Source: Dudresnaya verticillata (Eukaryota). Taken from it: a DNA stretch of 64,000 nucleotides. The DNA lies in the NCBI GenBank assembly GCA_977862235.1, contig OZ374560.1, positions 1 to 64,000 of the forward strand. The letters run 5' to 3'. The notes beneath the pieces were generated by a model that ran no database searches, was not told where the DNA came from, and saw only the letters and a program-made list of their open reading frames with translations. This document shows, in pieces, positions 1 through 61,904 of the stretch (its first letter is position 1; every line of letters starts with the position of its first letter). The position numbers and the translations under genes are program-made.

Positions 1-1281
1 AAACTACAAGTTATAACTAACCTAACTATACCCTAAACCCTAAACCCCTAAACCCCTAAACCCCTAAACCCCTAAAACCACTTAACTCACCTAAACCCTA
101 AACCCCTAAACCCCTAAAACCCCTAAACCCCTAAACCCCTAAACCCCCTACCCCCTAAACCCCAAAACCCCTAAAACCCCTAAACCCCTAAACCCCTAAA
201 CCCCTAAACCCCTAAACCCCTAAACCCCTAAACCCCTAAACCCCTAAACCCCTAAACCCCTAAACCCCTAAACCCCTAAACCCCTAAACCCCTAAACCCC
301 TAAACCCCTAAACCCCTAAACCCCTAAACCCCTAAACCCCTAAACCCCTAAACCCCTAAACCCCTAAACCCCTAAACCCCTAAACCCCTAAACCCCTAAA
401 CCCCTAAACCCCTAAACCCCTAAACCCCTAAACCCCTAAACCCCTAAACCCCTAAACCCCTAAACCCCTAAACCCCTAAACCCCTAAACCCCTAAACCCC
501 TAAACCCCTAAACCCCTAAACCCCTAAACCCCTAAACCCCTAAACCCCTAAACCCCTAAAACCCCTAAACCCCTAAACCCCTAAACCCCTAAACCCCTAA
601 ACCCCTAAACCCCTAAACCCCTAAACCCCTAAACCCCTAAACCCCTAAACCCCTAAACCCCTAAAACCCCTAAACCCCTAAACCCCTAAAACCCCTAAAC
701 CCCTAAACCCCTAAAACCCCTAAACCCCTAAAGCCCTAAACCCCTAAAACCCCTAAAACCCCTAAACCCCTAAAACCCCTAAACCCCTAAACCCCTAAAC
801 CCCTAAAACCCCTAAACCCCTAAACCCCTAAACCCCTAAACCCCTAAACCCCTAAAACCCCTAAACCCCTAAAACCCCTAAAACCCCTAAACCCCTAAAA
901 CCCCTAAACCCCTAAAAACCCCTAAACCCCTAAACCCCTAAACCCCTAAACCCCTAAACCCCTAAACCCCTAAACCCCTAAACCCCTAAACCCTAAACCC
1001 CTAAATAACCCCTAAACCCCTAAAACCCCTAAAAACCCCTAAACCCCTAAACCCCTAAACCCCTAAACCCCTAAACCCCTAAACCCCTAAACCCCTAAAC
1101 CCCTAAACCCCTAAACCCCTAAACCCCTAAACCCTAAAACCCCTAAACCCCTAAAACCCTAAACCCCTAAACCCCTAAACCCCTAAACCCCTAAACCCCT
1201 AAACCCCTAAACCCCTAAACCCCTAAACCCCTAAACCCCTAAAACCCCTAAACCCCTAAAACCCCTAAACCCCTAAAGCCC
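1..1281. repeat. Telomeric array (CCCCTAAA)n, i.e. TTTAGGGG on the G strand
   Basis: Tandem 8-mer from the window start. The first ~100 bp are noisy. Variants CCCCTAAAA, CCCTAAA and GCCCTAAA increase proximally. C-rich strand at the 5' end, as expected for a left chromosome end. Confidence 0.97.
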
Positions 1282-1547
1282 TAAGCAACCTTAGCCCAAT
1301 CCTTTACGGTTTTCCCCGCGCCGAGCCCGTTGCGGTCTACCACCACCACCGTTACAGAGTCCGTCCCGGCACTTGTACCACCCCCTTGTCTGTTGCTTCC
1401 CAATATCCGTTGCGGTTAGCCGCTAGCTGTTCTCCCGTTACGGTTCGAACTGCTCTACCACCCCGTGGAGGTAGTGTTGCTCTCGTCCGTTAAGGAAAGT
1501 CAGGCCAGCTGTCCGTCTCGGAGTTCGTGGGTTTTCACTACACCACA
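1282..1547 (+). repeat. E1 5' LTR remnant (last 266 bp of the LTR)
   Basis: Matches 12353-12618 with 5 substitutions by manual alignment; ends ...CACTACACCACA. Confidence 0.95.
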
Positions 1548-1552
1548 TCTTT

Positions 1553-1570
1553 TGGTCTCCCGACCTAGAA
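1553..1570 (+). promoter_or_regulatory. E1 primer-binding site, probably tRNA-Tyr
   Basis: TGGTCTCCCGACCTAGAA just after the LTR, complementary to a tRNA 3' end ...UUCUAGGUCGGGAGACCA (C1-G72 and A73 are typical of eukaryotic tRNA-Tyr). The same PBS occurs in E2. Confidence 0.75.
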
Positions 1571-1695
1571 CACCGTCACGGTTGGAAGAAACAGCCGTCG
1601 AAATCCGCTACGGTAGGAATTCGGCTGTACCGACAACCCGATACGGAATATTGGATAGACAAGCAAGAACAACCGTTGTGTTCCGTTAAGGTATC

Positions 1696-4176
1696 ATGCA
1701 GAACGAAGAACACGCAGACCCTCCCGTTACGGAATCTAAAGCGGGTGACACTACCCCCGCTGCGCGCAGTCTGCGCAGTGAAGGAGGTGAAATCCGTTCC
1801 GGAGTGGAGAACCCAGAAGACATCCTAAAGGGTGCTGCTGGTAAAGCTCCCCGTTCCCGTGTCGGATCAGACGCCTCTAAGAAGGCTGCTCCGCAACCCA
1901 AGCCGGAATCCCATCGGGTCCACTGGGTCCTGTCGGAGGTCCTTCCTAAGGTGTTAGAGCATCTCCGATTGGAAGTACAACCTGGAATGGTGAAAGAGAT
2001 GGAGATATCCCTCTCGGAAACTGTTCCGTCTTTGGTTAATTCCTATCTGGAGCAGCACCTTCCTCGGATAGTGCAAGCTTTGATCCTACAGGAAAAGGTG
2101 GCCGCCGAGCTCGAGAGCCAGATTGCTCCCGGAATGGCAAGGCCTCCCGCTACGGAAGCTTTTACTAAGCAACCACCGTTACGGAATGAATTCCCGGTCG
2201 AGGGAAGAACGCAGCAGCCGCAACAACCCCCCGTTATGGGATTGCCGCCGGGTACAGTACCCTCTGGGCCACTGCCACCGGCTCCCGTAACGGATTCTCA
2301 ACGTCAACAAGCCCCTACGGGACCAACACACACTCAGCCACCGTTACGGTATTCTCCTAGACACGTAGATGTGCCTACGCCAGGGCGCTATCAGCAAGAG
2401 CGCTATACCGTTCCGGTTAGAACAGGTGGAGGCAGCGACCATCTCAGCGATGCGTCCAGCTCACACCATCCGAGTCGGAGGACCGGTCGAGGTCGGCATA
2501 AACGAGATGCCCGACACTCCCGCTCTGACCCTCCCCGTCAGTCGCACATGGGCGACCACACCCAGCGACGACGCCACCAATCCGGTACGGAATCCAATGA
2601 GAGCAGCTTAGAGGATAGCCAACACCGCCGCCGCAAGAGGGGAAACAGAAGATCGCGGAAACGCGAAAAAGGGCATAACTCCTCTACCTCTACGGATTCA
2701 GACTCAGAGAGTTCTTCCGTAACGGATAGAGAGAACAGGCACCGGGCCAGAAAACACGGTGCCAAATCCGGAAAGGTGAAGGTAATCCGGCCGCTACATG
2801 ACAAGTTTGTCAAGGCGCTGGACTACCGCACCTACCGATTGGATAAGAGGAGTAAGACATACGGCTCTAAGTTCTCACAGAACATGAGCCGTATACGGAA
2901 GAAACTCGACGTCCAGATGTCGTCCCATACATTCGATGGGACGGACCCTATTACCGTCTTGGGATTTATCGCCAAGTTCCGTGACGGTTGTAACATCAAC
3001 GGCATCGCCGAAGGGGTTGCCGTCTGGTGCTTCCAGTTTTTCCTTAAAGGACAGGCCGAAGCCCTTCTACAGGCTAGGCTTGCTGGAGGTACCATGGCGG
3101 TTGACGTGGAGCAGGCCGAGATGCTCCGCACATATTCCGAGGTGGTGAACGTTTTATTGAGAACCTACGCTACGGATGAAGTGATTGCTGAAGCCTATAC
3201 GGATGTCAGCAACTTCAGGCAAACATCCGCCATGACGGAAGAGCAGATCTCGAACCAGCTCTGAGCCAAGGCTCTCCGTTGCGGTACAGTATTTTCCGAT
3301 CGGGCATTGAAGTCACTGTTCGTTGAAGGACTCCTACCGGGTACTCGTCAACAGATGAGAAATTATCTAGCGACGCATTCCCAGTTGGATTACCAGGCCA
3401 TCACTCGCTATGCGACTGGCCTGGGTCAGTCCCATCGGGCAGCGCGACGCCAAACCGTTCCGGCTCACGTCTTTGAAGGGCGCACTAAAGCACGCCCGTC
3501 TAAGGTGTTGTCGCTGGATTCCGTATCGGATGTACACTATGAGTCGCAAGGGAATCTTTCCGCTACGGATAATCAAGTGCTAGCCGTCGAGGGAGGCCAC
3601 GGTGCCGCTACGGGTACGAGCACGGGGGTTACCTTTTCTACCCCGTACTCCTCGCCCCCGCAAAGCGTCCACCCTACTCCGCCCAGGATGCCACGCGCGC
3701 AAGGTCCCCCCTATGGTGGATCTCGCCCGGCTCCTGGCCCCCAACAGCAGCCGAGTCACCGTTACGGAAATAATGCCCACGATGGGCGAGGACAACAGCA
3801 ACCAGCACCTCCGCTACGGGATGAGTCGGATCCTCGGGTCCGACGCCTTTACGGAAGTGGTAACTGTCGCATCTGCCTTTCGCCAGAGCACGTTGTTTGC
3901 CCATGGATACATGACTCCGATCGGGTTAGGCTTATGGAAGAGCGCGAGCGCAACTTCCAGAAGCACTACCCTGTAGGCCGCAGGTTCGTAGTAGGAACCA
4001 GTTCGAATCCGCAAGGGAATCGGGGCAGGCCGCAAACGCCCCCTCCGCAACGGAATGCCCCGATACTATCGGTGGAGGACCATGAAGGAGTGGAACTCGC
4101 AGAATTGCGCGAGCCCATGGAGGCGGATCCGACTGGTGCAACCTTGAATTCGGAAAACTCAAGGGGGGATGCGTAA
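1696..4176 (+). pseudogene. gag: E1 gag, one in-frame TGA at 3262-3264
   Basis: ORFs 1696-3264 and 3307-4176 are in the same frame. Retrotransposon gag core (FDGTDPITVLGF...LRTYAT...LFVEGL) and a C-x2-C-x4-H-x2-C knuckle-like motif (CRICLSPEHVVC). Confidence 0.88.
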
Positions 4177-4191
4177 GGGCGCCGCCATCCC
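4152..4191 (+). promoter_or_regulatory. Putative -1 ribosomal frameshift signal (gag/pol)
   Basis: G-GAA-AAC heptamer followed ~6 nt later by a GGGGATG...CATCCCC stem. The pol frame is -1 to gag and open from here. The E3 gag also ends TCG-GAA-AAC. Confidence 0.6.
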
Positions 4192-7100
4192 CGCCTCACG
4201 GCGTTCCACCTCTCGCGAGTGTGGAACCGCCAGGGGAGCGGCGAGATACCGTTACGGAACTCCCATTGGCTTATCAGACCAATGATACTATCTTCTTTAT
4301 GCAACATCAAAATTACAAGATGCAAATTACCGTGGGACGGACAGATAGCGTGATGCTTCCTTTAATATCCGTCTTGGACTCTGGCGCTGGGCCCAATCTC
4401 ATTAGTGCCAGGCGCCTTCCGCACCAATGGCTCCCACTCATACGCCCAGCAGCCAGTCCTCCATTACGGGATGCGTCTAATCGCGCTATACGCCCTCTTG
4501 GTCAGATCCAACTTTTCGTCCGTATCGGAGAGCTCCGTGCTCGCGTCCAGTTTCTAGTGGTCGCGAACTTGGCGGCTCCCTGTATTTTGGGAACTACCTT
4601 CATCGACCGCTACGTGAAGGCAATACTCCCTCCGTTACGGAAAGTTGTTTTTCATCATTACCCACCGGTATCCCTTGTTGGTCAAGCCAAAATTCCGAAG
4701 ACGGGAACCACTGCAACCCTACAGCCCTCACCTCTCTCTACCGCTACGGTTTCTCAGAAAATTCGTCTAGCAAAATCTACCCTTATTCCCCCTATGACTC
4801 AAACCACCGTAACGGTTAATACCCCCACGGGTGGGTTATGCTTTCTACAAAATCATCCTAAGCCGGCTTTTAAGCACCTTACGTTAATGGCTAATGGTAT
4901 TATGGATGTTGTACCTAACAAAACGTTTCGGATCTGGGTCTCTAATTTTTCTAACAAGCCGGTACGGTTGCCCAAATCTACTGTCGTGGGCCTCGCTACT
5001 GCTGCCCCTTCTGCTATTTTTACCGTTGACGGAATAATTCCATTTAAGGAGGGGGGAGGAATTATTCAATCATTTAATTCTAACCCTACCTCCGAAAAGG
5101 CCAGCAGCAGCTCCCCTCACGACAAGAAACTAAGCAAACCCGTAACGGAAAATACAAATACTACCGACTGGAAGGATCAAGTCCAGATCGGCACAGAAGA
5201 AGCATCGCTCCGCAAACGGATTTTAACCCTACTCGAGGAATATAAGTCGATGTGGAGTGGCGATCTTGGCAACATTACAGCTGCCAAGCACCGCATCGAG
5301 TTAACTCCCGGAGCTAAGCCAGCATACCAAGCCCCATACCGTGCCGGACATAAGCAGCGAGATCTCGAAAAGACAGAGATCGATCGCATGCTTTCCGCTA
5401 AGGTAATTGAACCAGCCTCATCGGAGTGGGCCAGCCCCGTGGTTTTCGTTCCAAAAAAGGACGGCACCATGCGGTTCTGTGTTGACTATAGAAGGCTCAA
5501 TTCCGTCACGGTTAGGGACTCATATCCCTTGCCCAGGATGGATGAATGCATAGGTTCCCTTGGGGAAGCTACTGTATTTACCACCCTGGATTGCAATAGC
5601 AGATATTGGCAAGTCGAGATTCCGGAAGAGGAAAGGGACAAAACTACCTTCACTAGCCATTTTGGCTTATACCGTTTTCGGAGAATGCCATTCGGATTGA
5701 AAAATGCACCGGCAACCTTCCAACGGGCAGTGGATATAATCCTTTCTACGGTTAAATGGCAATTTGCCCTCGTCTACCTAGACGATGTAATTGTCTACTC
5801 AAAAACAGTTACGGAACATTGCCACCACCTGAAGGAGGTCCTTATGCTGTTACAATCCGCTGGGGTAACGCTGAAGTTGTGAAAGTGTGACTTCTTCAAC
5901 GCGTCTGTACAATACCTGGGGCATGTTATCCGTCCCGGAAAATTAGAAGTGGATAATCGGAATATCCAATCCGTTAAGGTCGCGAAGCCGCCGACAAACC
6001 AAACGGAATTGCGATCCTTCTTGGGAATGTGCAACGTGTATCCTCGCTTTGTACCCAACTTCGCTCGGATTTCAGCGCCGCTAAATAAGAAAACCGGCAA
6101 GGGCTCACCCTTTGAGTTTGGAATATTATCCGATACGGAATATGAAGCCTTCGAGGAACTGAAGAGACGCCTTATCTCTCCACCTATATTGGCTCTACCC
6201 CGTCACGGATATAAATATACGTTGGACACTGACGCATGTGACCACCAAGTCGGCTGTGTCCTTCTGCAGGAACAACCGAATGGCGATCACCTCCCTATTG
6301 GATACTGGAGCCGAAGCCTCACCGATGCGGAGAAAAATTATACGACAACCGAAAAGGAATGCTTAGCCGTGGTCTGGAGCATGTTAACACTCCGACCCTA
6401 CCTTTACGACGACAAGTTTATTCTCCGAACGGATCACGATGCTCTGCGGTGGATCCTGAACCTTGCAGACTCATCTGGCCGCCTTGCCAGGTGGAGGCTC
6501 CGCCTATCGGAATTTGAATTTGAGGTGCAATACCGTCCTGGAATTAAGCATCAACTCGCCGATGGGATGTCGCGACTCCGAACGGATGGCGGTGACGATA
6601 GACCTTTGGATGAAGAGATACCCTGCTTTATCGCCGAAAATGCCGTCGACGGATTATATGAGCATGGAGCCTATTTAACCGATTGGGCCACATCGCGAGA
6701 AACCGCTACGGAAAATAACGTAATATGCGCCGTGGAGCCCGCCAGTGGGAGCGCATCCGCCTCCCCTGACAAGCCCGACACAATACCGTCACGGTTTACT
6801 GTAATCCAAGAATCCGACGCTAAGGATGGGACAATTACCAGGGAGGAGTTCCTCGAAGCGCAAGCCAGAGACCCTTTCTGTCGTCTCAAAGCCGATACGG
6901 TAGGCTCCACTGGATCACAGTTTGACTATGACCGTAACGGATTCTTGGTACGCAAGTCCCAATTGGATGGCGCTCTACAGAAGGTGGTGCCAAGCGAACT
7001 CCGTGGACGGGTATTGTATTTATCCCACTATACCCTGATGTCGGGTCACCCAGGTGGAATTAAGATGTATTACACACTCCGTCAGGATTATTATTGGCCT

Positions 7101-10100
7101 CATATGGCCAACGATGTATTTGAATACGTTCGGACATGTCGCTCCTGCGTGAAGAAAAAGGGAACCCGCTTTCGGAATCAAAGGTTTATGAAACTTTTCC
7201 CCGCTAGCGGACCTTTGGAGTTTGTCGCTATCGACATTCTCGGGCCACTCCCGAAGACAAAACGGGGTTATGTCTACGTCTTGGTAATAACCGATCGGTT
7301 CTCTAAGCTGACGCACTGTATTCCGTTACGGACAACAACAGCCGTTGTGGTGGCTAACGCCTTTCTGGACTTTTGGGTGTACGCCTACGGCGCACCCCAA
7401 TTTGTCCTAACCGATAACGGACTGCAGTTTACTGCTAAATTCTTCGACGCGGTGTGTTCCTTACTCGGAGTCAGGCACCTGCTCACCGCTGCCTACCATC
7501 CGCAGACAAATGGGCAAGCGGAGCGGTTTAATAAGACAATCGCCCAACGTTTGCGCCATTACGTTGAGGATCATCACTCCGATTGGGATTTGTACCTGCA
7601 ACCGTTGACGTATGCGTACAACATGCAGGTACACCGTATTACGGAAACAACGCCATTTGATTTGGTGCTGACACGCCACCCATGGGACATTGTTGTACGA
7701 GGGGCTCCTGTCGAGCATCAAGAAACCGTTACGGAAGGGCGTATGACCCCGGTGCTACAGAAGCGGAGCACCATGCGCCGTTTACGGTATGCGCTCCAGA
7801 CAGCGCGCACGAAGCAGACAGTGGCTCAGCAAAAAGCCAAGGCACTGTTTGACCGTAAGGTGCGCTTTAGGCCCATAATCCGTAGCGGAGATCAAGTCTA
7901 TGTCGACCGGCCGCCCCATAACTTGCGGCCGGCCGAACGCCGTGAGCGGGACCGATTGGAAGGAAAACCGGATGATGTGGGCGAGGTGGCTCAAGAAATG
8001 AAGAAACTCCTTCCGAGAGCCACGGGGCCTTATGAAGTGGAATCCGCAACGGAACATGTCGTTACAATCCGCAAGGAAGGGGTATTGATCCCAGTAAGTA
8101 TCGATCGCATCACGAAGGTTCCGATCGGAGTTGCGGTTCAGCCGGCACCCTTGATAGTGCCGCCTGTCACGCCATCAACCGTCTACGGAGAAGTAGTGCC
8201 AAATCCAGAAGGTACTACAGTAGTCCCTCAATCAGAAGGTACTACTCCCTCCGCGACGGAACCACTGCAAGCCGATACGGAATATGTGATCGACAAGATT
8301 GAAAAACGCGCACTTGTGCATCGCAACAAACGGCGATGCAAGTTGCGTTTGACAGAAGCTCTCCTGTCCTCCGACCCTACTGATGGTCCCAAAATGGTTA
8401 AGGCCGTGCTCCGAAACGCATCAGGCCCACTTGGTTCTCGGAGAGACCAACCAATTGGGAAGTTGGACCTGGCCAACTTTACAAAACACCTCGCGACAGG
8501 GGCTGGAAAAGGACATATTCCGCCCATTGTGCCCTTCGAAACTTCCCGAAACTTCGAATCTCACGTTTTCCGTGCTATAGTCAAGGCCAAACCGAAGAAG
8601 GCCACAGGCACGGATGAAGTCTTCAGCGAAGCATTCAAGGTCGCCCCAAAGTCCTTTGCGCATGTCTTGGGACTCTTTTGGGTGAAATGCAGTCAGCTCG
8701 GGTACCTATTGCAAGATTGGCAAACATCCCTGCTGGTGCCAATTTACAAACGGGGTCCCAAATCGGACCCAACCAGCTATCGACCGATTGCGCTAGTGTC
8801 GCACGGACGACAAATGCTTTCAAAGGCAATCGCGTCTATGATTCGTAAGGAGTACCAGTTTCATCCGACTCAGTTGGGGTTCCGTGAGAAAACTGGTACC
8901 GAAACCGCCATCTTAAGGCATGCAGCCAGCACAAAAGCTGGATTCCGGTACACGGCCGTGCTCGACTTGAAGTCGGCATACGATACAGTACCCCGCGAGC
9001 GGTTGATGTCGAAAGTGAATCAGAAGATGTCACCTACCACGGCGGCAATGGTCGCTCTGGAGTTACAACCAGCAACAGTAGTTACCAAGGGCGATATCAC
9101 CGGCACCACTGCAATTGTGTCGCGGGGTGTGCCTCAAGGCGTGTCTTCGAGTCCGACTTTGTACAATGTCAACATGGACTCGTATCCTGAGTTCATGGAT
9201 TTGTCAATGTCGGCCTCCGAAAGTGCTGAAGAAATCGACATTACGATCTTTGCTGACGACGTCAAGCTCCGATCCAAGACTAGTACCGGCCTCCAAACGG
9301 CCTTAGATGCGTCCACGAAATGGGCTGATCTTGAAGGTATGCAGTGGGGAACTTCAAAATGCCATGTTTTGGAGCCCGAAAACTGCACCAAACGAGCAAT
9401 GTACTACCTGAATGGTCAGAAAATTGACGTGGTAGACACTGCAAAGTACCTGGGAGTGACTCTGAAAGGTACCAAACTGGCACCTGACAAGAATTTGGAA
9501 CGAGTTAAGGCGGCTCATCAACGCCTAAACTTACTCAAGGCGGTCGGCGTACACCGCAAATATGTGCCTAGCGCACGACTTGTGGACATCTGCCGCACGT
9601 ATATCTACCCAGTTGCGGACTTTAGCACCCATTTGATGCCGATCGACACGGCAGGCAAGTGCGATTTGAGTCATCAACTCGAGTTGCTGGACTACAAAGT
9701 GGCAGAATTTGCACTTGGGTGCATTGCCAAAGAGCCTATGTGGCCTCGCAGTGGCCGCATCCGCGGGCGCCTACCACGTCATTTGAAGATGGCCAAGCTG
9801 CCGGACTGGTTGCAGCGTATCCGTCTGCGCCTTCGCAGTCTGGGTAAACGCCTCACAAAACGAGCTCACCGCAACCGTGGCGACGTGCTCGCCATGACAG
9901 ATATGTTAGAATTCCGAAGTTTCCGGGCGCAGAATAAGAGTCCTCTGGACATGAGGAACCAGGATCTCCGTGATTCGTGGGAGGGCCTGTGTCGCCAACG
10001 TCGGCGGCGCATTCCAGTTCCCGACTCTGGATTCGTTCCGATTCTACATATTAGGGATCGTAAGCTGCGAGATGCCGGGATTCGATGGTATTGTGGGTCA

Positions 10101-10676
10101 TTTCCCGGAAAACCGGATGTCCTCAAGACTCGACTTGGTCCCGAGGTCTACAGGTTGCACAAAGCCCGAATTGAGTCTGGATTGAGTGTGAAGCGTTGGA
10201 ATGCGGGCGTGCAAGCCCGACTCCTAGATAGTCTGAAGGCATTTCTGGATGTCTTAGATGACCAAAACTGTGTTGGTCAGAAGCGCAAACGCGAGGATTT
10301 GAGTCCCGTGCACAGAACGACCAAGAAGCGCAAACCAAGTTAGCAAATCATCGCATTGGAAGCATGTAGTACCGAATATGTTTTAGAGTTTGCATGAAGG
10401 TTGAAGACGTACTCCCTTGCCACATAGTGTAGCGTAGCTACAACTTAGGACACTGAGGCGTCTCTAAATAAATCACACATTTCGATTGTCGGTCACCGTG
10501 ACGAACCGATTGGGATGACGTACAAAGTCCGCTGGTACGGCTACCCTCCGGATCAGGACACCTACGAACCCGCCGAGGAATTGCCGCAGAACTTTATCTA
10601 CCGCTATTGGAAACAAAAACGAAAGAGCTCCGCTAAGGGAAAACCTCTGCGACGCGCAGGCAAGGCGCGCCGCTAA
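4158..10676 (+). pseudogene. pol: E1 pol (PR, RT, RNase H, integrase, chromodomain), with a TGA at 5880-5882 and a LINE insertion at 8302-10483
   Basis: LDSGA protease, YLDD RT, TDAC/EKECLAV RNase H, HHCC plus DILGP/TDNG/QAER integrase, GPY module. The chromodomain EYVIDK|IVGHRDEPIGMTYKVRWYGY...YEPAEEL resumes at ~10485. Confidence 0.92.
8302..10483 (+). mobile_element. 5'-truncated non-LTR retrotransposon (LINE RT), in frame with the E1 integrase
   Basis: LINE RT motifs KATGTD, YRPIAL, QLGFR, DLKSAYD, GVPQG, FADD, YLG. Stop at 10343, 3' UTR with AATAAA. Flanked by a GATTG duplication (8297-8301 / 10484-10488). Confidence 0.93.
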
Positions 10677-11948
10677 CCGTAACGGAAGACAAGCCACTGT
10701 AGCTTGGGGCAATCGCAACTCTCCGCGTTTTGGAGACACAGTTACGGGAACTGACTCTTGTCGACGTCTGCTACCGCTACGGGATGTTGTTGTCGCTCAT
10801 ACTGGGGGAAACCGCTCCGTCACGGCTTTTGTCAGCGTGAGTCGCGTATCCTACCGGAACGCGACCCATTTCCCGAAACGGCACTCTCGCATTGCCGCAG
10901 TATCGCAGTCGGCATAATCCGCCGAGGTTTCACCGGTTCCGCGGCACTCTTCCGTCACGGAATGCGCTCTAGACACCTCGGCAGAGCCGCTACGGTGTTC
11001 GTCGTGGACCATTCTGGGAGGGGCACGCCTTTTTCTTGCGATGGGCGGCCGCCCCAGCACATTTGGGCCAAGAACGGCCCCTTCCGCGACGGTACAGGAA
11101 AATTCCTCGGTCTCATTATTCTTCTCAGAGTCCCGGGGTATATATTAATATTGATGTTAATATTAATATTTTCAATATATTATATTGAAAATAATATATT
11201 AACACCGTCGCGGGTTGGGTTCATCTCAAGAGGAAGAGGTTCGTGGTGTGTCTCATAAGGGTAGGAGTGAAGGTATTCGCCTGTAACCGCTACGGATTCC
11301 TGAAACACGCCGCCTGCGACGGTTTGTGGCGTATCTAGCCCCCCAACTTCTCGCCACCCAAGTCGGAACAACTTCCGTCAGGAGGTAGCGGGTGTGAAGT
11401 ACCATCATCCGATCGGAGCACGAATTGTCCGTTGTGGATATGGGAGCGTAATCGACGGCGCGTTCGGGCAGACCGTTGGGGAAACTTATTCCGCTACGGT
11501 GAGAGCAACACTCTCCAAGAGTGTTTGTTCCTTCATGTGTGGTAGGACCCCCATGTCGGATTTTTGCAAATGCGGCTGTCTGTGAGGTGTCTGGATTGCA
11601 CTCCCGTTACGGTGAAAGAGGGGTAAGATCTGGCGTCTGCTCCGCTGACACACTGGAGGAACCCGTTGCGGATGCTTTATGAGGCAGAAGACTGGCGACC
11701 AGCCTGGGCAAGAAATCCTCGCGGATGGCACGCTACACTCTCGTCAAGCGCGTTTTGGTTATTCTCCGTGACGGAAAGGACGTCCTGGTATTGGAGGTGC
11801 GTGGGGCATCCCAGCGCATCTAAGCAAACCGTGACGGCAGTAGGGAAGTTGATGAGAGATCTGGAAAAGCTTTTCGAATCCGTTGACGGTGCGTCGGACC
11901 CAGATCGCAACTTCTTGAAGGTGGGCGCACGAGGACGTGGCGCCATTT

Positions 11949-11959
11949 AAGGAGGGGGG
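11949..11959 (+). promoter_or_regulatory. E1 polypurine tract
   Basis: AAGGAGGGGGG two bases before the LTR start TGTGGTG. Confidence 0.85.
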
Positions 11960-11961
11960 TC

Positions 11962-12618
11962 TGTGGTGAAGTGAGATTCGGCATCCGAAACGGTGGAAAT
12001 GCATATAGTGTGGCCTGAACCGTTGTGGGATGTGTGCATGTGTAACCGTGTCGGATGTTGTGCGCATTGCTGTACGCTGGTACGCATTGCTGTACAGCAG
12101 TGAAGCGCACCAACCATACCGGAGTATTTGTAGTGTTTATTCTTTATTTTTAGTGAGTATCTGTACAGTATGTAGAGTAGTGCGCCAGCCAATGAGAATG
12201 CTGCGCATGTCCGTGTCGGAGATTGGGACCAGCAGGGCCGATTCCACCATGGGTCCAGACCACTAGGGTCTGGCCCCCACGGACCGGACCGCTCGGTGCC
12301 ACCCTGACTTGTATATCAGGGCGGCACCGCAGCGGCTCCTAAGGCAAACGGGTAAGCAACCTTAGCCCAATCCTTTACGGTTTTCCCCGCGCCGAGCCCG
12401 TTGCGGTCTACCACCACCACCGTTACAGAGTCCGTCCCGGCAGTTGTACCACCCCCTTGTCTGTTGCTTCCCAATATCCGTCTCGGTTAGCCGCTAGCTG
12501 TTCTCCCGTTACGGTGCGAACTGCTCTACCACCCCGTGGAGGTAGTGCTGCTCTCGTCCGTTAAGGAAAGTCAGGCCAGCTGTCCGTCTCGGAGTTCGTG
12601 GGTTTTCACTACACCACA
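11962..12618 (+). repeat. E1 3' LTR (657 bp)
   Basis: TGTGGTGAAGTGA...TCACTACACCACA inverted termini; follows the PPT; matches the 5' remnant. Confidence 0.92.
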
Positions 12619-31758: not shown

Positions 31759-31893
31759 CCAACCCGCCATTCCACCCCCCCGAGGGCACAGCGTGCTACC
31801 AAGCCCAGACAACCCACGGGCACCCACGACGCGCAGCTTCGGCTGGGGCGCGCCCAAACCGCCATCCAACTACAACAAACTGCCCCGCGAGGC

Positions 31894-32880
31894 GTGCCCT
31901 GGCTGTCAAGAAGCCAAGCCGCCTCGCCCGGCGTTCCAATATCCCACGTAGACCCGTTCGGATTGCTGGCTAGCTATGCCGCCCCGCCTGGCCTGCCGAT
32001 GAAGTTCGCCGCCCCGACTTGCCACCCAAAAGTATCAAACATCATAGACGGGTCTGTGAAGGCGCCCTCGGTGCCAGTCTGGACCGAGGAGCAGCGCCGC
32101 ACCGTGCTTGCCTTATTGAGTGCAGCTGGAGTCGCTACTAGCGGTTTGAGTGGTTCGCCCACTGAGTGGGTGAACCAGTCTCTGGCGGCTGCGTCGCGTT
32201 CCCAAAGTGCGTCGGTGCCGGTGCCGATGGTTGGCGTAGGTTCTGCGTCGAAAGACGGTGCCGACGGAAAGTCGTCATCGCCTAAGGCGACTGGTTCAGC
32301 GTCCAAAGACGTAATTGATACTGTACCACCAGCGGCGAGCGAGGCAGATGTCGCTACAACGTCTCCGACGGTTGAAGAGGGCCCAGTGGCTCCTGCGTTG
32401 ATGACGGATATAGATCCAATGACGCCAAAGGCGGGTGAGGGGTCTACGTCGGTTCAGACGGTTGCGACAGTTGCGCCGAAGGCGGTATGTTCTGCGGCGC
32501 CGAAGACGAGCGATGAGTTGAACTCTACGCCAAAGGCGGTTGCGGTTGCTTCGCCGTCTAAGGGGACAGTCCCTGCAACTACGCCGAAGGCGGATGTTAT
32601 CGGGGCAGCGCCGGAGGCGAATGGACCACTTGGTTCTGCGCCGTCGGCGGTTGGGAAGGCCAAAGAGGCTTCGCCGCCTAAGGCGGGTGGCGAGTCGAAC
32701 CCTTCGCCAGGGGCGCATATTACTCCTTCAGCTGTGGCGGTGGCGGTGCCTTTGCGGTCCGTCCCTGTTGCCGCTGTGGGTGTGCCGTCAGTGACGGAAG
32801 ACGACCTCTATGAAGAGGCGTTGAGGGAGTCCGCCGATGGCGATGGTGCGGCGGACTCGGCCAAACCGTCTGCTACGTGA
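31894..32880 (+). CDS. E2 antisense accessory ORF, C-terminal part (Ala/Pro/Ser-rich)
   Basis: 328 open codons antisense to pol; shares the W....S.GV....VDPF motif with the E3 antisense ORF. Confidence 0.55.
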   Translation: MPWLSRSQAASPGVPISHVDPFGLLASYAAPPGLPMKFAAPTCHPKVSNIIDGSVKAPSVPVWTEEQRRTVLALLSAAGVATSGLSGSPTEWVNQSLAAASRSQSASVPVPMVGVGSASKDGADGKSSSPKATGSASKDVIDTVPPAASEADVATTSPTVEEGPVAPALMTDIDPMTPKAGEGSTSVQTVATVAPKAVCSAAPKTSDELNSTPKAVAVASPSKGTVPATTPKADVIGAAPEANGPLGSAPSAVGKAKEASPPKAGGESNPSPGAHITPSAVAVAVPLRSVPVAAVGVPSVTEDDLYEEALRESADGDGAADSAKPSAT

Positions 32881-34229
32881 CATAGTTAGCGTCGTTTAGG
32901 GCGGAAGGCCTTCGCGGGGGTGCGTATCGTGTACCTTGTCGGCTCCTTTGCGGAGTCGGGGCAAGGCGTCGTACGTCGTTGACGAATGTGTTAAATGTTC
33001 TGCGGCGTTTAGCCGCCGTGGCTTGTAGCTTGGGCGCGGGGCTTCCCCGTTGCTTAGCCCGAATGAATTGTATCGTTGGTAACGTAGTTTGGTTTCGTCT
33101 CGCTGCGACCGTCGTGTTGCAGCCGTCACGTCTTAGTGTTTTGCCACCGCGTTTCTTGTCTTCGTCGTGACGACGTTAGCATATTAATCGTCGAGAGACG
33201 TTACTTGGGCGTTGTACCTCCCTTCTTGTTCGCACATTAGCGTTGTGTAGCGCCCGGAGCGTATAGGGGTTTAGCGACGTTGTCGGTGCCGAGCCTCTTG
33301 GTTATCTCGCTTAGCGAAGCGTTTCTTTGCGTTGCATTTCATCCTGCCACGCCCGACGTAGTCGTCTTAGGGGACTCGCTCAGCGCGTTGTTGGGCCATT
33401 TGCAACGCCTGGGGCGTATTCTCTTCTCGTTTGGTGCGCTGTAGCTTAGTTGTGCGCATCGTCGTTGACGGAGGTCGGCGTGTGGTAGGTGAGGTCAGAG
33501 CCTTGTTCCTCGTCTCCGACGTTCGCCTTCGAGGGTGGGGAATGGTCGCCGCGCGACTGTGGCGGGCATTCCCAGCGGCGGAGCCGTTGCGCGATTTGGT
33601 TAGCGATTCGGTTGTGCGTCGTGCACGGAACCGTGATAAACGCGTCCTCGACGACTCAATCCCCCCCTTTGTCGGCGGGTTCGGCGGCGTGGTGCGTGTG
33701 TTCGTGCCCGGCCGAGCCGTTCGCTGGCTGGGGAAGTGAAGGCTGCAGCGACTTGGCCGTGGTGCGCAAGCGTGCGGCAACGTCGGGGACGGTCTTTGCG
33801 CGTTACGAAGTGCGTCTCTGCATGGCGACGTGCGCGCCGGTAGCACCAGTGCTGCCACTTGGCATACCTTGTGTGGCGTAATGGTTGATTGTCGGGTAGT
33901 GCGCCTCCCCTTTGTTTGTGCATTAAATTTTCCAGCTCGCGTCTGCGTCTGCAATGGGATTGGTGAGGCGCGTACCTCGGTGAGTGATCGGGAGCCACTG
34001 TCAGCCACCCGCGCATCCGGGGCGTTGTATGAGGGCCTTGTGGTGTGGTTGTCTTCGACGCCAGAATTGCATCCGGCTCCGTCTGTGACGTGTGTGCTTG
34101 ATTGTCGCCGCGGCGGGTGTGTCCGCGTCCACGTACGTGAGAGGGGGATTCCACGCCGTTGGCGACATCCGCCCGCGCAGTCTCTGAACGTCATTGTATT
34201 CGCTACTAGCGTTGTTTTCCCGATTAGGG

Positions 34230-37200
34230 TTATCCGCGCTGGGCGTCCTCAATATTTGGAGGCAGGCGCGTGTGCTTCCGACGGTGGTACCGCACGGCGT
34301 GTGATCGCGGCAAACTGGACACGGGCTCCCAGGTGTTCGCTGAAGCGGGGTATCCAAACCACTTGACGCGGTAGAGGATCTCACCGTCATCCGCGTAGGC
34401 GTGCGACTCGATGCGTTCGATAACGTATTCTTTCCCGCTCACAGCGTTCGGCTTGGACCGGTGTCCTTCCAGCGCCTTTGGCGGTTCGTCTCGTTGCGTT
34501 ATGGGCGTCTGTTCCGGTTCGGCGAAGCGTACTCGACGAGTTGATCGCCGAAGGCGTTGGCCTTGGGCCTCGGACGCTCGATCAGCGGTCAGTGGGTTGT
34601 TGCGTCTTGAGACGACTTCATCGCTTGCAGCGCTTTGCTTCGTACTTGCACGGTTAACGTCTTCGTTATCGGACGCGCTTTCAGCGGATTCATTGTTCTC
34701 ATTCGGCGGTGCCGTAGCGACGTGTTCCAAACGGGTGCGAACCCCTGGGGTATTGTCGTCGTTGGAGACGGATTGCGAAGCGCGGTCGTCGGGATCGGCA
34801 GCGAAGGGCGAAAGCTCTGCCAACCCACGACTGTGTGACGCTGTGGTCGTACGCTCTTGCGGATCTCTCGCAGTATTCGAAGTCTCCGCGTCCCCCTCCG
34901 GGTCCGCTGGTGGCGTGCTTGGGGTAGTCGTCCCTTCGTCTTGTGACGTGGGGGCGACTGCGTCCTGCTCCTCAGGTGGACCTGGTGGTACGACGATTGG
35001 AGGAGCCGCCTGGCCCGGTGGGGTCGGCGCCCAGACCACGCGGTCTCGGGACAAACGTTCCCGCTCATCACGTCCCTTGTCGACGGTTTCTCCCTTCGTC
35101 TGTAGACGCGAAAGGGCATCTGCCTGAGTATTCGGGTACCCCTTTTTGTACTTCACGACAAAGTCGAACTCGGAAAGGCGAAGGCGCCACCGCATTAACC
35201 GTCCAGAGGGGTCGCTGATTTCCATCAGCCACCTCAATGACGAATGGTCCGTATGGACTGTGAACGACTCCATCTGGAGGTAAGGTCGCAGCGTCATGAC
35301 GGACCATACTACTGCGAGGCACTCCTTTTCGGAGACCGAGTAGTTACGCTCTGGAGCGGTGAGTGAGCGGGACCAGAAGCCGAGTGGCTTACGTTCCCCG
35401 TCCGGCTGCATTTGAAAGAGAGCGCAGCCAACCTGATACTCGCTTGCGTCACAGTCGACGGAGTAGGGGAGATCCTGTTGTGGTAGCGCCAGTATAGGCG
35501 GATGAGTCACGGCCTCGACGAGCGTATTGAACGCTTTGGCTTGTGTCTCATCAAACGGTGGTAACCGGAAGTCCTGTTCCTTCCTCAGCAACTTGTCGAG
35601 GGGGGCAGCGACATGCGCGTATCGCGAGACGAACCGTCGGTAGACGTTACAAAGACCTAGGAAACTCCGTAGCTCCTTCTGATCCCGTGGATGCTTGGCT
35701 TCGCGTAGCGCGGCAGTGACAGTTCGGTCGACTTCTAACCGTCCTGGACGTATGACGTGTCCTAAGTAGTTGACGGTCGGGGTGAAGAAGTCACACTTGG
35801 TCAACTTCAGAGTCACCCCGGCGCGGTGCAATGTGGAAAGGATCTCGTCAACATGACGGAGGTGACTGTCGATGTCGCTGGAGAAGATTATTACGTCATC
35901 GAGGTAGACGAGGCACGAACGCCACTTGTAACCAGCGAGCAGTATGTCCAACGTTCGTTTAAACGTAGCGGGTGCGTTCGTGAGACCGAATGGCATACGC
36001 TTATAGCGGAACAGTCCAGCGTGGCACGTGAACGCAGTCTTATCGCGGTCTCGCGGATTGATCGGCACTTACCAGTACCCACTGTTACATTCTAGGGTGG
36101 TGAAGACGTTTGCTTCCCCTAGACTGTCGATGCATTCGTCGATACGCGGCAGCGGGTACGTGTCCCGTATGGTTACTGCGTTTAAACGACGGTAGTCCAC
36201 GCAAAAGCGGAGGGTCCCGTCCTTCTTGGGGGCGAAGACCACTGGTGACGCCCACGGCGATTGTGCGGGTTCGATAACCCCTTGACGCAGCATGCGGTCC
36301 ACTTCCGCTTGAGCGAGTTGCCTTTGCTTCGGCCCCGCTCGATAGGGCGGGGACGATATCGGCCTAGAGCCGGGAAGCAAGTCGATGTAGTGCTCTGTGG
36401 TTGAGATTTCTCCCAACGAACCGTCCCACATAGACGAATACTTGCGCAAAATCTCCTTAAGCCGGCCTTGATGCTCGGCGGGGAGATGGCTCAGGTCCAA
36501 ATCGTCTACCGACGGAGGTTTGGCAGTGGTTGCCTCGATAGACTTCGTGAAAGTATCCGGCTGTGCCGTACTGTTATCGTTCGTTTGAAAACGGAAATCT
36601 TGGTTTGCCTTCTACTCCTCGGCCTGTTCCTCTGTGAGGCCCAAAACATCGGCAAGACTTACGTGACTGGGGAACACTGCTGTCGGATGTGGTAACGCCG
36701 TCGCGGCGACTTGGCCTTTGGCCAGCGCCTGCGGGCGGGGAGAGAAGTTGGCAACCAGAATGCGAAACGCTTTTAGCGACTCCACTTGAGCAATCCCGTT
36801 CGTAACGGCCAACCCTTGTTTGTCGTACAGCGTTCCGAACGGTTGAATTGTGATGATACCGGCGCGCTCGGTGGTCACCAATACCCATTGCTGCGCCTTA
36901 GGCGGGATGATCGCGCGCTCGGCGACTCGGATCTTGGGCGACGTCCTCCCTTCGGCCTTGCCGTATTCCTGTTCCGTTGGTAACGGAGGATACGACGGGG
37001 GTCGGCGCAGCGGGCGGCGCGTTATAGGGACACGAGTCCCGTCATCCAATTCAACCTCGCGACTTCGCGGATATATTGCTTCGAAGAACCGGTCGCAAAA
37101 GTCGCAGCCGAGTATCACCGGCGCAGCGAGTCGTTCGCAAACGATCAGTTCCAACTTGACGACTCTCCGTCCTAGACGAACGATCAAGTCGATGGTGCCT

Positions 37201-37421
37201 CTTGTCTGGATCGCCTTATTGTTGGCTTCGGCTATGACGGGGAGGCTCTTTGTCACGATGCGCGATCGCGCTTCCAGCGGAATGTCGTCAATGCGAATGA
37301 AATTCGGACCAGCCCCCGTGTCGAGGACAGTGAGTTTACGTGCCAAGGTACTAACGGTTGCGCCCAAATCGGCGTACACCTTATAATTCCTCTTGGCCAT
37401 CACGAACAACTGCCCTTGCAC
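34230..37421 (-). pseudogene. pol: E2 pol: PR, RT, RNase H, chromodomain; in-frame stops at 36612 and 36069; no integrase
   Basis: LDTGA, YLDD, DASEY/EKECLAV, ADALSRL joined directly to ...RLSRDRV, then EYVIERI...YRVKWFGY...TWEP. Confidence 0.9.
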
Positions 37422-37590
37422 CCGGGGGGGCTGGTACCTTCGCCATGGGCGTTTTAATGACGTCTGTGACGACTCTATCCGCCCGTTGGCGTCATCTGAA
37501 ACTAACTTCGGGCCCCCCTCCGTGTCAGCACCCGAGGCCTAGGCCTTTCTTCGCGGTGCGACACCCCAGTGTCAGGAGTTGGTGCCCGAG

Positions 37591-40155
37591 TTAGTTTTTG
37601 GCCTGCGGCGGTGGTTGTGGCGCTTCATAGCGATTGACCATCGTCGGATGACGTTCTGCCGCGTGCGGCATGGGTCCGCCTCGTGGCGATTGTGGTCGTG
37701 CAGCACGGCGAGCGGCATCGCGGGTCGCGCGTTCCTTGCAACGTACATACGCATCAGCGGGGACACCAGCCTTCTCGGATTCGGTTAGTCCTTCATAGTT
37801 GGTAATAACCTTCATGAAGTCGCTCATGCGAAGGAAGCAGTCCGGCGTGATGTGTCCGCGGGCGTAGCATTGGTGGCATACCAGTTGCCGACGCGCGTCT
37901 TGACGGGGCGGGCCTCTGTCCTGCCACCCGGGCCTTGCTCGGTGGACGTGAGGGGCATACTCGGAATAGGGGACGCGTGGCGCTGGTATGACCGAGCGCC
38001 CAAAGGCGAGAACAGGGTCCATATCCCTTTCGTCCTCGTCATCGACGTAGCTGTCCGTCGGTAGAGCCGAGGTTGGCACCGACGCTTGCTCGTCTGCCAA
38101 GTACAAATCGCCTTCGGCGTGTGTTTCCATGTCACCGACAGGTCGACTAATGTCTCGGAACTCGACGGAGGACTCCGCTATCATAGCGCGCGCTCCAGGC
38201 TTGGCGCCTCTCGTCTGTGGACGCAGTACCCCTCGGGCATCGCCGATGGCGGATCGCGGTGTGCGTACGGCTTGAGCCGGTGTCAGTAGGTCACGTCGCG
38301 CTGACGCGGAACCGGCTCTGCCGTGTCGTGCGCGGTTGGCATCCCCTTCGTCCTGTTCGAAGTGGACCAGCCGCTCAAATGACAACTCCGCCCTTGGCGT
38401 TTCTTCTCGGAAGCGAGCGACCAGAGACCTGATCGACGGGTCTAACCCGTCGATGTACAGCGTCATCTTTTCCCAATCGGGATATACGTTACCGCAACGA
38501 ATACACGCACCGGCTAGCCGCATCCCATAGGTCGTCTCGTCTTCGCCTTGCTTTTGGGCAGTCGACCGTAGGGCGAGGACAGCGTCCCTGATCGCCGCTG
38601 GCGTAGCATACGTACGGAGGAGGTACTGTACCGCCTCCGGATACGAAGACACCCCGCCGCGATGGCGAGAAGACGTCGACTTGACGGAGCGGAATTGCGT
38701 GGCTGCCGTACATCGCAAGAAGTACGGCAGCGCGACGAACGCTTGGGCTTCGCTCATCTCCAGCGTATCGGCTTCATCCGCGTAACGCGTCAGGAACTCG
38801 AGGACCATGACGGGGTCGCTGCCGTTGAAGGCGGCGTCCTTCATGGTCAGCTCCAGTCGCTTAATGTGGTCCTTGACCTTGCCCGTATCGCGCCCTGAGC
38901 GTTTTTGTCCTACGTCTTTGAGACGGTAAGTCCGGTACGATAATAGCTGATCGAAAAGGGGGTTGGAGGGGCGTAGCTCCTTCAACCCCTTGAACCGCTT
39001 TCCGCGAGGTCTTGCCGCACTGCCGAGAGTTGGGAAGTCGTCGTCTTCAGACGAAGAGTCCGATGACTCTCCGTCACTTGACGAGTACGAAGACGATGAG
39101 GATGGGTCCCCTCGTCGATGACGATTCTTCTTCCGTCTCTGACGTAGCTTCCGACGGCGTTTCTTCCGGTCCTTACGTCTTTGACGATCTTCGCCTGAGC
39201 TCTCGTCACCTGACGGCGGACCATTGCGCCACTTGGCGGTTTCGAGACGCTCTAAGCGAGTCGCAAGTCGCTGAAAGCGTTCGCGTGAGCTAAGCTCAGA
39301 ATGCGAATGAACCGTTACTGCCGGCGGTGGCTGGGTACCCTCGCCTTGGGCGTTTTGGTTCGTCAATAGACGGTCGAGGTCGGATCGAAGTCCTTGTAGG
39401 GCGCCGTTCCGATCTTCTTCCAGCGTCTGTAGACGACTCGCGATTCCTCCGACACTGTCGTCCAGCAACCCGGCGAATCGAGCGAGCATCGCATCGTCCT
39501 CTAAGACGCACACCTCTCGGATCCGTTCGCGTGGTATCGTTAAGTTACTCACGCGGACGGCCGAGGGTGACGCCGTTGGCGGTTGGCTTTCGCGGTTGGA
39601 CCGGTCGGGCGTCCCTTGCGCCCTTTGACTTGGCGAATTCGGCTTAGCCGGTGAACAACCGGCACTGCCGTGGGGAGTGGGGCAACATGCCCCGTGTGTC
39701 AATGGTTCGTCCCCGACGTTGCGCTCCGCGGCGCGCCCCTGTTCGTCGTTGACGTGGATGGTTAGTTGATCCGGAAGTTCCGGTTGTCCCTCGACGATGT
39801 CGGCTTGTGTTCCGTCTACGACGTCCTGTTGCTCGGCTTGTACTGTATCAGCCGAGTCAACATAGGAGCGGTAGGTGCGGAGGGCCGATCCCTCGGGGAC
39901 GGAGGTGCGGACAACGACGGGGTTGTGGCGCGTCGGCGGGGGAGGTAACTCTCCTCCGTTGAGCGACGCGTGGGAGCCTGCGTGGCCGTGGCCCGGGGGT
40001 AGCGTCGGGAACGCCGACGCGATCTCGGGGCTCACGAGGCGCCCAGACCTCGTTGTCATCCGCTGTAGCGACCGTTCAGACACGGGTACACTCCCAGGCG
40101 TCGAAGACGGTCTTCTTGAACTTGGGCCTCGCGACGGCGGCGGTCGTGAGGCCAT
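37591..40155 (-). CDS. gag: E2 gag (854 aa, open)
   Basis: FNGSDPVMVLEF...LLRTYAT...YIDGL core and a CHQCYARGHITPDC CCHC knuckle; homologous to the E1 gag. Confidence 0.88.
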   Translation of the reverse strand: MASRPPPSRGPSSRRPSSTPGSVPVSERSLQRMTTRSGRLVSPEIASAFPTLPPGHGHAGSHASLNGGELPPPPTRHNPVVVRTSVPEGSALRTYRSYVDSADTVQAEQQDVVDGTQADIVEGQPELPDQLTIHVNDEQGRAAERNVGDEPLTHGACCPTPHGSAGCSPAKPNSPSQRAQGTPDRSNRESQPPTASPSAVRVSNLTIPRERIREVCVLEDDAMLARFAGLLDDSVGGIASRLQTLEEDRNGALQGLRSDLDRLLTNQNAQGEGTQPPPAVTVHSHSELSSRERFQRLATRLERLETAKWRNGPPSGDESSGEDRQRRKDRKKRRRKLRQRRKKNRHRRGDPSSSSSYSSSDGESSDSSSEDDDFPTLGSAARPRGKRFKGLKELRPSNPLFDQLLSYRTYRLKDVGQKRSGRDTGKVKDHIKRLELTMKDAAFNGSDPVMVLEFLTRYADEADTLEMSEAQAFVALPYFLRCTAATQFRSVKSTSSRHRGGVSSYPEAVQYLLRTYATPAAIRDAVLALRSTAQKQGEDETTYGMRLAGACIRCGNVYPDWEKMTLYIDGLDPSIRSLVARFREETPRAELSFERLVHFEQDEGDANRARHGRAGSASARRDLLTPAQAVRTPRSAIGDARGVLRPQTRGAKPGARAMIAESSVEFRDISRPVGDMETHAEGDLYLADEQASVPTSALPTDSYVDDEDERDMDPVLAFGRSVIPAPRVPYSEYAPHVHRARPGWQDRGPPRQDARRQLVCHQCYARGHITPDCFLRMSDFMKVITNYEGLTESEKAGVPADAYVRCKERATRDAARRAARPQSPRGGPMPHAAERHPTMVNRYEAPQPPPQAKN

Positions 40156-40260
40156 GATACAATCGTAGAGTTGCTTGAACGTCGTGGACGATTAGCGACA
40201 AACGTCAGAGACGGGGAGTCGGACGTCGCGCGACGGAGAAACTCGTTGAAACGTAGCACA

Positions 40261-40279
40261 ATTCTAGGTCGGGAGACCA
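40261..40279 (-). promoter_or_regulatory. E2 primer-binding site (same tRNA as E1, probably Tyr)
   Basis: TGGTCTCCCGACCTAGAAT on the minus strand, 2 nt after the LTR. Confidence 0.8.
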
Positions 40280-40281
40280 GA

Positions 40282-41130
40282 TGTGGTGCAAACGTCTGTC
40301 GACGATGGACCGCCGAGCAGTTCGGGGCTCGGTGGGTAGCTGCGCCCTTGGCGAGAGGTGGTCCCGCCGTGGGCGACTTGGTGGTAGAGCAAAGGAACAC
40401 GCCTTGGGCGGACTGTAGACGCCGAGGCGGAAGGTGTGAAGGAAGGAAAAAGGGAACAGAAAAGGGAAGCACGTCAAGGACGGGTAGAGACGTGGAAGCA
40501 CGGGAGGTAGACGCTTAGCCGTAGGCAGCGGTAGGGTACGCGCGTGCGGAACGGGGAAGTCTGGACCAAGGCCGGCTTGTCCAGGGTTTACTCAGCATCG
40601 CAGACGGATTACCTAATATACAGTACTACGTGAGCGACGGCGGTAGGCGCGGTGAGCGGGAACTCAGGACGCGTGTCACGTCGTCGAGCGTCTGACACGT
40701 CGTCGTCGCCATGCAGCCGCGCGCGCGAGAGCTCAGGAGTAGCTTACAGGCGCATGCGTGTAGCGTTGCGGGCGATCCGGATTCGGATCCAGATCCCGGC
40801 CAGCATTGCTGGCGCGCGGCCATTACAGGCGCGCTCCTTACATCGCTGTGGATCCGGATGCCGGATCCCGGAGTCCCATCCGGATCCGATCCGGATCCGG
40901 GCCAAGCTTACAGGCGGGCGCCCTGCGCCCGGCCGATCGGGATCGTGCATCCGGATCTGGCCGTACAGTGGGCGCGTGCGCCGCGCCGCGCGGGGTAACG
41001 GCGGCCGTATGCCCGTGGGCCAATCGTCGATGACGTGTTCGCGCGCCAACGGCGGTGGACGTTCCGTCGGTGGACGTTGGCATATAATACGCTCAGAGCG
41101 AAAAAGGGGCAGCCCTCCCCTTGCACCACA
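40282..41130 (-). repeat. E2 5' LTR (849 bp)
   Basis: Perfect TGTGGTGCAA...TTGCACCACA termini; GGATCC-rich U3; homologous to the solo LTR at 47682-50251. Confidence 0.9.
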
Positions 41131-51433: not shown

Positions 51434-51750
51434 GTAATACACATAATCGAGTTCACGCAGAGTTCGACAATCTCCGTGCTGGCAAGGTCCGCAGGATCGA
51501 AGACCCACTCAAAAGCCTCCGGGATCTCGTCTCGGGAGTCAGCAAGCATTTCCTCGTGCTCGACCGCAGCGCAACCGCCCCCGTGGGCAAGGCGACTCAC
51601 TCGCTTCCCGTTCGCAGCTCGCACGCGTTTTCGGAGTACCAGTTAAACGCTATTCGTGACATCGTGTCCGCCGCGTTACGAAAAGACTAGAAGTCGCAAA
51701 GATCGTCCCGATGTCCGTCCTGACCCCGCAATTCGCCGCAAGTTCAACCC

Positions 51751-61800: not shown

Positions 61801-61904
61801 GAGCGAACTATTCGAAGAAAGAAACGCGCGAACTGGTTCTTCCGTTCATTGATTTAGAAGCATTTGTGTCCCAGAAAACAGTTTCAGATAGCTCCGAAAT
61901 AGGT

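Follow-up and report, generated by a model that had tools for sequence, protein, structure and literature searches.

We analyzed the first 64,000 nucleotides of contig OZ374560.1 from Dudresnaya verticillata (GenBank assembly GCA_977862235.1), a stretch referred to here as the window. It begins with a telomeric array, which is followed by a long terminal repeat (LTR) retrotransposon that we call E1; two further Gypsy elements, E2 and E3, lie downstream. E1 carries the spaced palindrome CCG-N3-CGG throughout its length, also inside its genes, and this palindrome is family-specific. The motif is likely a selected binding site of a dimeric protein that acts on double-stranded DNA.

E1 and its surroundings

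E1 is a chromodomain Ty3/Gypsy retrotransposon at a chromosome tip. A Pfam search recovers reverse transcriptase (RT), RNase H, integrase and a C-terminal chromodomain in the order that characterizes Ty3/Gypsy elements with a chromodomain, and LTRs with TG...CA ends, a primer-binding site and a polypurine tract are all present. E1 gag has no Pfam match, nor does a protease-like motif in pol that was read from the sequence. The telomere has shortened the 5' LTR: at window positions 1270-1300, the telomere repeats join the inside of this LTR at a common TAA, as in the telomere healing of a break. A similar telomere unit occurs in Bostrychia, according to the available part of bioRxiv 2025.02.11.637652.

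E1 is young but dead, because its two LTRs differ at five positions, gag and pol each contain a stop, and a long interspersed nuclear element (LINE) lies inside the chromodomain. The RT of this LINE is in frame with E1 pol and shares with it a single open frame, 5883-10343. The 3' region of E1 includes a 60-bp island of A and T only, which is partly self-complementary (window 11142-11200). No Rfam match was found in E1. Its best RT relatives are metagenome proteins (74%), and the best full-length named match is from Agarophyton chilense (65%), which, like the telomere unit, makes a red-algal host likely. We found no close copy of E1; the 147 related loci that were fetched are at most 65% identical over the full query.

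Table 1. Positions of E1, its motif array and the other Gypsy elements in the window
Feature	Position	Strand	Remarks
Telomeric array (CCCCTAAA)n	1..1281	.	Directly adjoins E1, the outermost element of this chromosome arm
5' LTR, last 266 bp only	1282..1547	+	Remainder lost to telomere; 5 motif sites, 18.8/kb
Motif array	1327..12592	.	74 CCG-N3-CGG sites, with 14 N4 variants in addition; gaps average 130 bp, the two smallest being 21 and 28 bp
5' leader	1548-1695	+	3 motif sites, 20/kb
Primer-binding site, begins TGG	1553..1570	+	Common to E1 and E2
gag	1696..4176	+	Single in-frame stop 3262-3264; 20 motif sites
pol, -1 frame	4086..8301	+	RT, RNase H, integrase; single in-frame stop 5880-5882; 23 motif sites
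Central polypurine tract	5046..5056	+	Same sequence as 3' polypurine tract; between protease and RT
Nested LINE fragment	8302..10483	+	5-bp target duplication; interrupts chromodomain; 0 motif sites
Remaining part of integrase chromodomain (PF00385)	10485..10676	+	Pfam match
Region from pol to 3' LTR	10677..11961	-	14 motif sites, 10.9/kb; lacks an intact ORF; may hold a decayed antisense remnant of ORF3
3' polypurine tract	11949..11959	+	
3' LTR, 657 bp, TGTGGTG...CACCACA	11962..12618	+	9 motif sites, 13.7/kb
Gypsy E2	31760..41131	-	Own palindrome CGYC-N3-GRCG, 51 sites, 5.4/kb vs 0.23/kb in E1
Gypsy E3, decayed	51000..61900	+	Non-palindromic CTTCGT, 50 vs 9, both strands

Enrichment, spacing and protein imprint of the palindrome

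A sequence-only reading of this DNA had counted about 74 palindromes by eye. The exact count in 1282-12618 is 74, and all 23 positions that it gave as examples are among the counted sites. Its expectation of about three sites from base composition also agrees with the mean of mononucleotide shuffles of E1 (3.4). This mean rises to 4.3, 5.9, 6.9 and 10.8 when dinucleotide to pentanucleotide counts are preserved (300 shuffles per null), and the maximum in any shuffle is 19. When synonymous codons were shuffled (2000 times), gag gave on average 3.1 sites and pol 2.6, with a maximum of 9 in each, whereas 20 and 23 are observed. By that reading's own criterion, the claim would be refuted if the enrichment vanished against codon- and dinucleotide-preserving nulls; it persists against both.

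Other parts of the description stood equally well. Sites lie in the LTRs, untranslated regions and coding DNA, and those in gag and pol use all three reading frames. None occurs in the nested LINE, whose own null is just 0.5-0.7, so that this zero is telling only beside the 7.8 sites/kb of E1. The remaining 51 kb of the window contains 12 sites, which is under the null of 17-20 for that region. Three statements required adjustment. The N4 variants proved more numerous than the 10 or so reported, at 15 in the interval, or 14 without the LINE and the repeated LTR. CCGT-N-ACGG holds as the core, but is perfect in only 25 of the 69 non-redundant sites on which our profile, core and compensation counts are based; it has no perfect occurrence in the other 51 kb, little of which is host gene. 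Finally, the sites are indeed not driven by amino acids, yet the reverse holds, in that the motif skews the amino acids of E1 proteins.

The full profile of the 69 sites, WWCCGT-N-ACGGWW, is dyad-symmetric and contains about 14.5 bits. Its inner T and A compensate for each other (both present in 25 sites, one in 41, neither in 3; Fisher P 0.014), a behavior to be expected if two half-sites must together pass an energy threshold. Sites also avoid one another. Only 1 of 68 gaps is shorter than 28 bp, compared with about 10 expected; three nulls (uniform and density-matched), each simulated 4000 times, never reproduced this. The 14 N4 variants likewise keep their distance from N3 sites: the closest is 46 bp away, and P is 0.006 for having none at 27 bp or less. 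They therefore behave as equivalent sites. No periodicity of sites at the nucleosome or helical scale was detected. Once full sites are masked, half-sites are mildly enriched at most; for example, the MYB-type CCGTTA occurs 6 times, against 3.7 expected. A MYB/MSA host site was considered and rejected, as the single CNGTTR/AACGG half-site is not enriched without its partner.

We infer a dimer on double-stranded DNA because of the dyad profile, the absence of hairpin covariation, the half-site compensation and the mutual spacing. The family-specific, element-wide barcode for a dimeric protein that the sequence-only reading envisaged is in keeping with these profile, compensation and spacing results, and its two other suggestions, a packaging signal and a CpG-linked process, are not. 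That the sites are hairpins of RNA or single-stranded DNA that serve in packaging, or else products of mutation (by template switching, a CpG-linked process or tandem duplication), is largely refuted and in our judgment highly improbable. Such origins could account for the strand bias of the central base (T in 35 and A in 14 of 69 sites) and for the two CpGs in every E1 site. A hairpin should show stem extension or covariation, whereas the flanks form 25 pairings against 24.5 expected (29 against 27.6 with wobble), the inner positions are anticorrelated, and local folding predicts a paired stem at 8 of the 69 sites. As for mutation, no other palindrome is enriched in E1 and no tandem repeat in it holds the motif, the motifs of E1 and E2 differ within one genome, and spacing exclusion would be unexpected. 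Moreover, the observed/expected CpG ratio is 0.83-1.25 per kb over E1, near-miss sites have no skew toward CpG transitions, and a comparable motif in relatives, CTC-N6-GAG (see below), lacks CpG.

The density of sites tracks protein constraint. It is 19-20/kb in the 5' LTR and leader, 8-11/kb in variable regions (the 3' region, the linkers and the variable parts of gag), and 2.5-5.4/kb in conserved domains (RT, RNase H, integrase and the core of gag). Within gag, it falls from 10.3/kb in the N-terminal part to 2.9/kb in the core and returns to 9.5/kb in the C-terminal part; within pol, the linkers have 6-9/kb, and the lowest values are those of the three enzymes. Coding DNA nevertheless holds 43 of the 69 sites, and peptides spelled by the motif are in excess in both proteins (Pol 19 vs 3.5; Gag 13 vs 3.6). 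Among 90 related Pol proteins, such peptides reach z >3 only in P0004, P0008 and P0013 (all 53-60% identity). At E1 sites, residues mostly differ in the ten closest relatives, which implies that sites turn over. From these sequence patterns, the sites have very probably been maintained by selection because a dimer binds them on double-stranded DNA. Its footprint would be about 28-45 bp, and a second site within that span would bring no gain. The sites have probably arisen by point changes at places where the encoded protein permits them, rather than by tandem duplication. Selection for DNA sites that is strong enough to alter Pol residues would be unusual, even if the binder were a host protein.

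Motifs of other families and the antisense ORF3

E2 lies 20 kb from E1 in the same window, and the motifs of the two elements hardly overlap: the E1 motif occurs 69 times in E1 and 6 times in E2, and the E2 motif 51 times in E2 and twice in E1. CGYC-N3-GRCG is spread over the LTR, gag, pol and 3' region of E2, and the E2 genes exceed synonymous nulls. The motif is also present in a solo LTR of a related family (47683-50251; 73% identity, 5-bp target duplication), in which four of five E2-type sites occupy the same aligned places as in the E2 LTR.

Several features of these elements were recorded in passing. E2 has no integrase match between RNase H and chromodomain, and has an antisense low-complexity frame at 31501-32880 (+). 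It is enclosed by 350-bp inverted repeats (31409-31758 and 46833-47182) that are 99% identical and have outer TTAA ends; these are presumably piggyBac-like. The element that interrupts the solo LTR at about 48340-49910 is Tc1/mariner-like by its motifs. E3 has an observed/expected CpG ratio of 1.5 and is flanked by inverted repeats at 47397-47682/62164-62449 and 50403-50491/61924-62012.

Two of the fetched relatives, L082 and L083, have CTC-N6-GAG throughout gag, pol and an antisense gene. Although four-fold sites of the two are 39% identical, they have 7 CTC-N6-GAG sites in common, of 12 and 15. Conserved Leu-Glu pairs at the motif spacing are coded CTC/GAG in 7 and 6 of 9 cases, compared with 0 of 15 at other spacings. 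On this comparison, the sites have been kept despite near-saturated synonymous divergence. A scan of whole elements, for which no shuffle control was used, gave weaker clade-specific palindromes (GGC-N4-GCC and GCC-N4-GGC), and some clades gave none; clades were assigned from a tree that leaves out most loci above L100. Candidate motifs in L058 and L037 were dropped as local repeats. Loci L081-L090 and L100 are eukaryotic Gypsy contigs inside bacterial genome bins, probably as a result of algal contamination; among the matches listed for three contaminated bins, there was no Gypsy-like cluster of the E1 core motif.

Many relatives have a long antisense open reading frame (ORF) behind pol, which we call ORF3. 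Two groups of it are distantly homologous, and a joint profile recovers 166 proteins and 30 of the 147 loci, mostly antisense behind pol. A further fragment, in L150, is too short to reveal a motif. The ORF3 core of L082 was modeled with a predicted local distance difference test (pLDDT) score of 85 and a predicted template-modeling (pTM) score of 0.88; an earlier model from five sequences (pLDDT 32) was unusable. In L082, L083 and L086, a coiled-coil-like stretch and a basic tail come after the core, an arrangement that a nuclear oligomer would be expected to have. Pfam gave no match for ORF3 (61 sequences), and the core has no sequence match in the PDB. E3 retains a probable antisense ORF3 remnant near 60678-60731, which is better supported than that of E1. 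In the 3' region of E1, the antisense strand has four weak ORF3-like blocks in the right order, of which the best is 11274-11360. A second antisense ORF family, apparently unrelated, is found in another Gypsy clade (L001:8710-9990, L060 and L022). On sequence grounds, we rate ORF3 as the best candidate for the binder of E1 sites, at roughly even odds.

A possible self-recognition system

We propose that E1 is covered from LTR to LTR by a family-specific palindrome to which the family's antisense accessory protein, ORF3, would bind as dimers. Supplied by intact copies elsewhere, ORF3 would sit on the element at intervals of about 130 bp and shield it from host silencing. The protein would act in trans and the sites in cis, so a copy could lose the gene yet keep the sites, as E1 could have done. 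We assign this reading a probability of about 0.45. By analogy with the VANC system alone (discussed below), its purpose is probably anti-silencing, and the target is probably Polycomb-deposited histone H3 lysine 27 trimethylation (H3K27me3) more than DNA methylation. H3K27me3 silences transposable elements (TEs) in Cyanidioschyzon, a red alga, according to the accessible part of bioRxiv 2025.02.11.637652.

Several results weigh against this proposal. E1 has no intact ORF3: we found no coding signal, no profile match and no homologue for its best open stretch. Signs of a remnant in it are weak: P is 0.01-0.02 by one frameshift-aware test, another shows nothing, and a chain test ranked the wrong strand equally high (55.0 vs 54.1). 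E2, truncated in its 3' part, yielded no ORF3 match, and its sites are not under-dispersed. The ORF3 core has no fold match, including to DNA-binding folds, in the PDB by Foldseek, by VIA (best Z 2.7 of 48,161 chains) or in a viral set, although this absence does not show that the fold is new. We scanned 29 loci that bear ORF3 and obtained a palindrome at log10 P < -6.5 in 10, of which two reflect CCC/GGG runs, and the ORF3-bearing clade of L014, L017, L020, L024, L033 and L044 has none. L088 shows a weak palindrome without an antisense ORF of 150 amino acids. The peptide imprint of E1 appears in 0 of 48 ORF3 homologues (best z 2.5). The peptide patterns were taken from E1's own motif, which inflates the z-scores of E1. 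Finally, in a scan restricted to pol, which took in 98 elements having 2.5 kb or more of it, only four (E1, E2, L082 and L083) exceeded the largest of 294 shuffles.

The lack of an intact ORF3 in E1 and of a clear palindrome in most ORF3-bearing relatives would be explained if each Gypsy family had separately co-opted a dimeric host transcription or chromatin factor, with ORF3 irrelevant. All dimer-type evidence suits a host protein equally, and Zn2Cys6 factors typically recognize everted CCG/CGG repeats. We regard this as rather unlikely. A different factor would be required for each family (the window has three motifs, and relatives have more), and coverage of coding DNA is unusual for promoter sites. 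The absence of perfect cores from the other 51 kb also argues against a host factor, though little of that DNA is host gene, as does the MYB-type half-site, which is not enriched after masking.

Alternatively, a domain of Gag or Pol might bind the sites on new double-stranded cDNA, for coating, nuclear entry or the choice of its own DNA for integration, and not on chromatin. Only gag and pol are near-intact in E1, cis selection at every transposition would suit coverage of the whole length, and sites are densest in the LTR and leader. This possibility appears improbable, since no sequence-specific DNA-binding domain was found in pol or, by Pfam, in gag, and relatives with the same Pol domains mostly lack palindromes (94 of 98). 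Integrases, as far as is known, read the LTR ends only.

The proposal that ORF3 dimers coat barcoded copies has its closest precedent in the VANC proteins and motifs of Arabidopsis VANDAL Mutator-like transposons (PMC5735166). As far as the available part of that source extends, VANDAL elements resemble E1 in having a dense short motif that is specific to one TE family and differs in sister families, and resemble the E1 lineage in having an accessory gene beside the core genes. VANC21 is predicted to dimerize through a coiled coil (PMC13547354, in part). However, VANDAL elements are DNA transposons and E1 is an LTR retrotransposon. VANDAL motifs, in the same account, are same-orientation 8-9-mers in tandem repeats, mainly in non-coding DNA, whereas E1 sites are palindromic, dispersed, mutually exclusive and largely coding. 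Pfam detected no VANC (DUF1985) or Plant Mobile Domain (PMD) match in E1 ORFs or the 61 ORF3 sequences, and the fold searches, whose chains may lack VANC21, gave none. The analogy drawn by the sequence-only reading thus survives as a likeness of operation and fails as VANDAL membership: the E1 palindromes are best read as part of a putative VANC-like self-recognition system.

Antisense extra ORFs between pol and the 3' LTR are also present in Grande, RIRE2, Retand and Boty, and DNA binding has been proposed for them (PMC7264820, PMC11963269). They resemble ORF3 in position, orientation and coiled-coil-like and basic parts, but ORF3 lacks the Retand-type TRP28 domain (PF04195) or any other Pfam domain, and the available parts of these sources associate the ORFs with tandem arrays of the 3' region alone and with no element-wide motif. 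The PMD modules MAIL1, MAIN and MAIL2 likewise pair a protein with a motif, one of them palindromic, in opposition to Polycomb, and PMD-A is retrotransposon-encoded; these modules are, however, host genes that act at promoters (bioRxiv 2024.09.27.615353, in part), and ORF3 has no PMD match in Pfam. For the accessory genes of red-algal Plavaka elements, binding to repeats within the same element has been suggested. The accessible text of bioRxiv 2025.02.11.637652 indicates that these differ as DNA transposons with ParB, oxygenase and SET domains and local inverted repeats, and binding is a proposal there too. Our literature search, which left subscription journals mostly outside, turned up no LTR retrotransposon described as carrying family-specific palindromes along the whole element, and the available part of PMC12859917 describes none either.

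If the binder is element-encoded, E1 would represent a new variant of TE self-recognition. More tentatively, this red-algal Gypsy lineage might use a private self-recognition code, in which each family has an antisense protein of undescribed fold and its own palindrome along the whole element, which would take precedence over the choice of codons and amino acids. Barcode and protein would co-diverge, and cheaters such as E1 would keep the barcode and drop the gene. Such a code would be the first case of a retrotransposon with an anti-silencing system directed at itself, and its proteins would form a reprogrammable family of DNA binders with targets readable from sequence. A retrotransposon body shaped, enzymes included, by family-specific sites for a protein would carry this TE strategy to retroelements. 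The long-open role of antisense extra ORFs also becomes testable, as L082 and L083 combine an intact gene with a predicted target, CTC-N6-GAG.

Apart from these elements, the window contains a tRNA-Pro(AGG) gene at 27346-27420.

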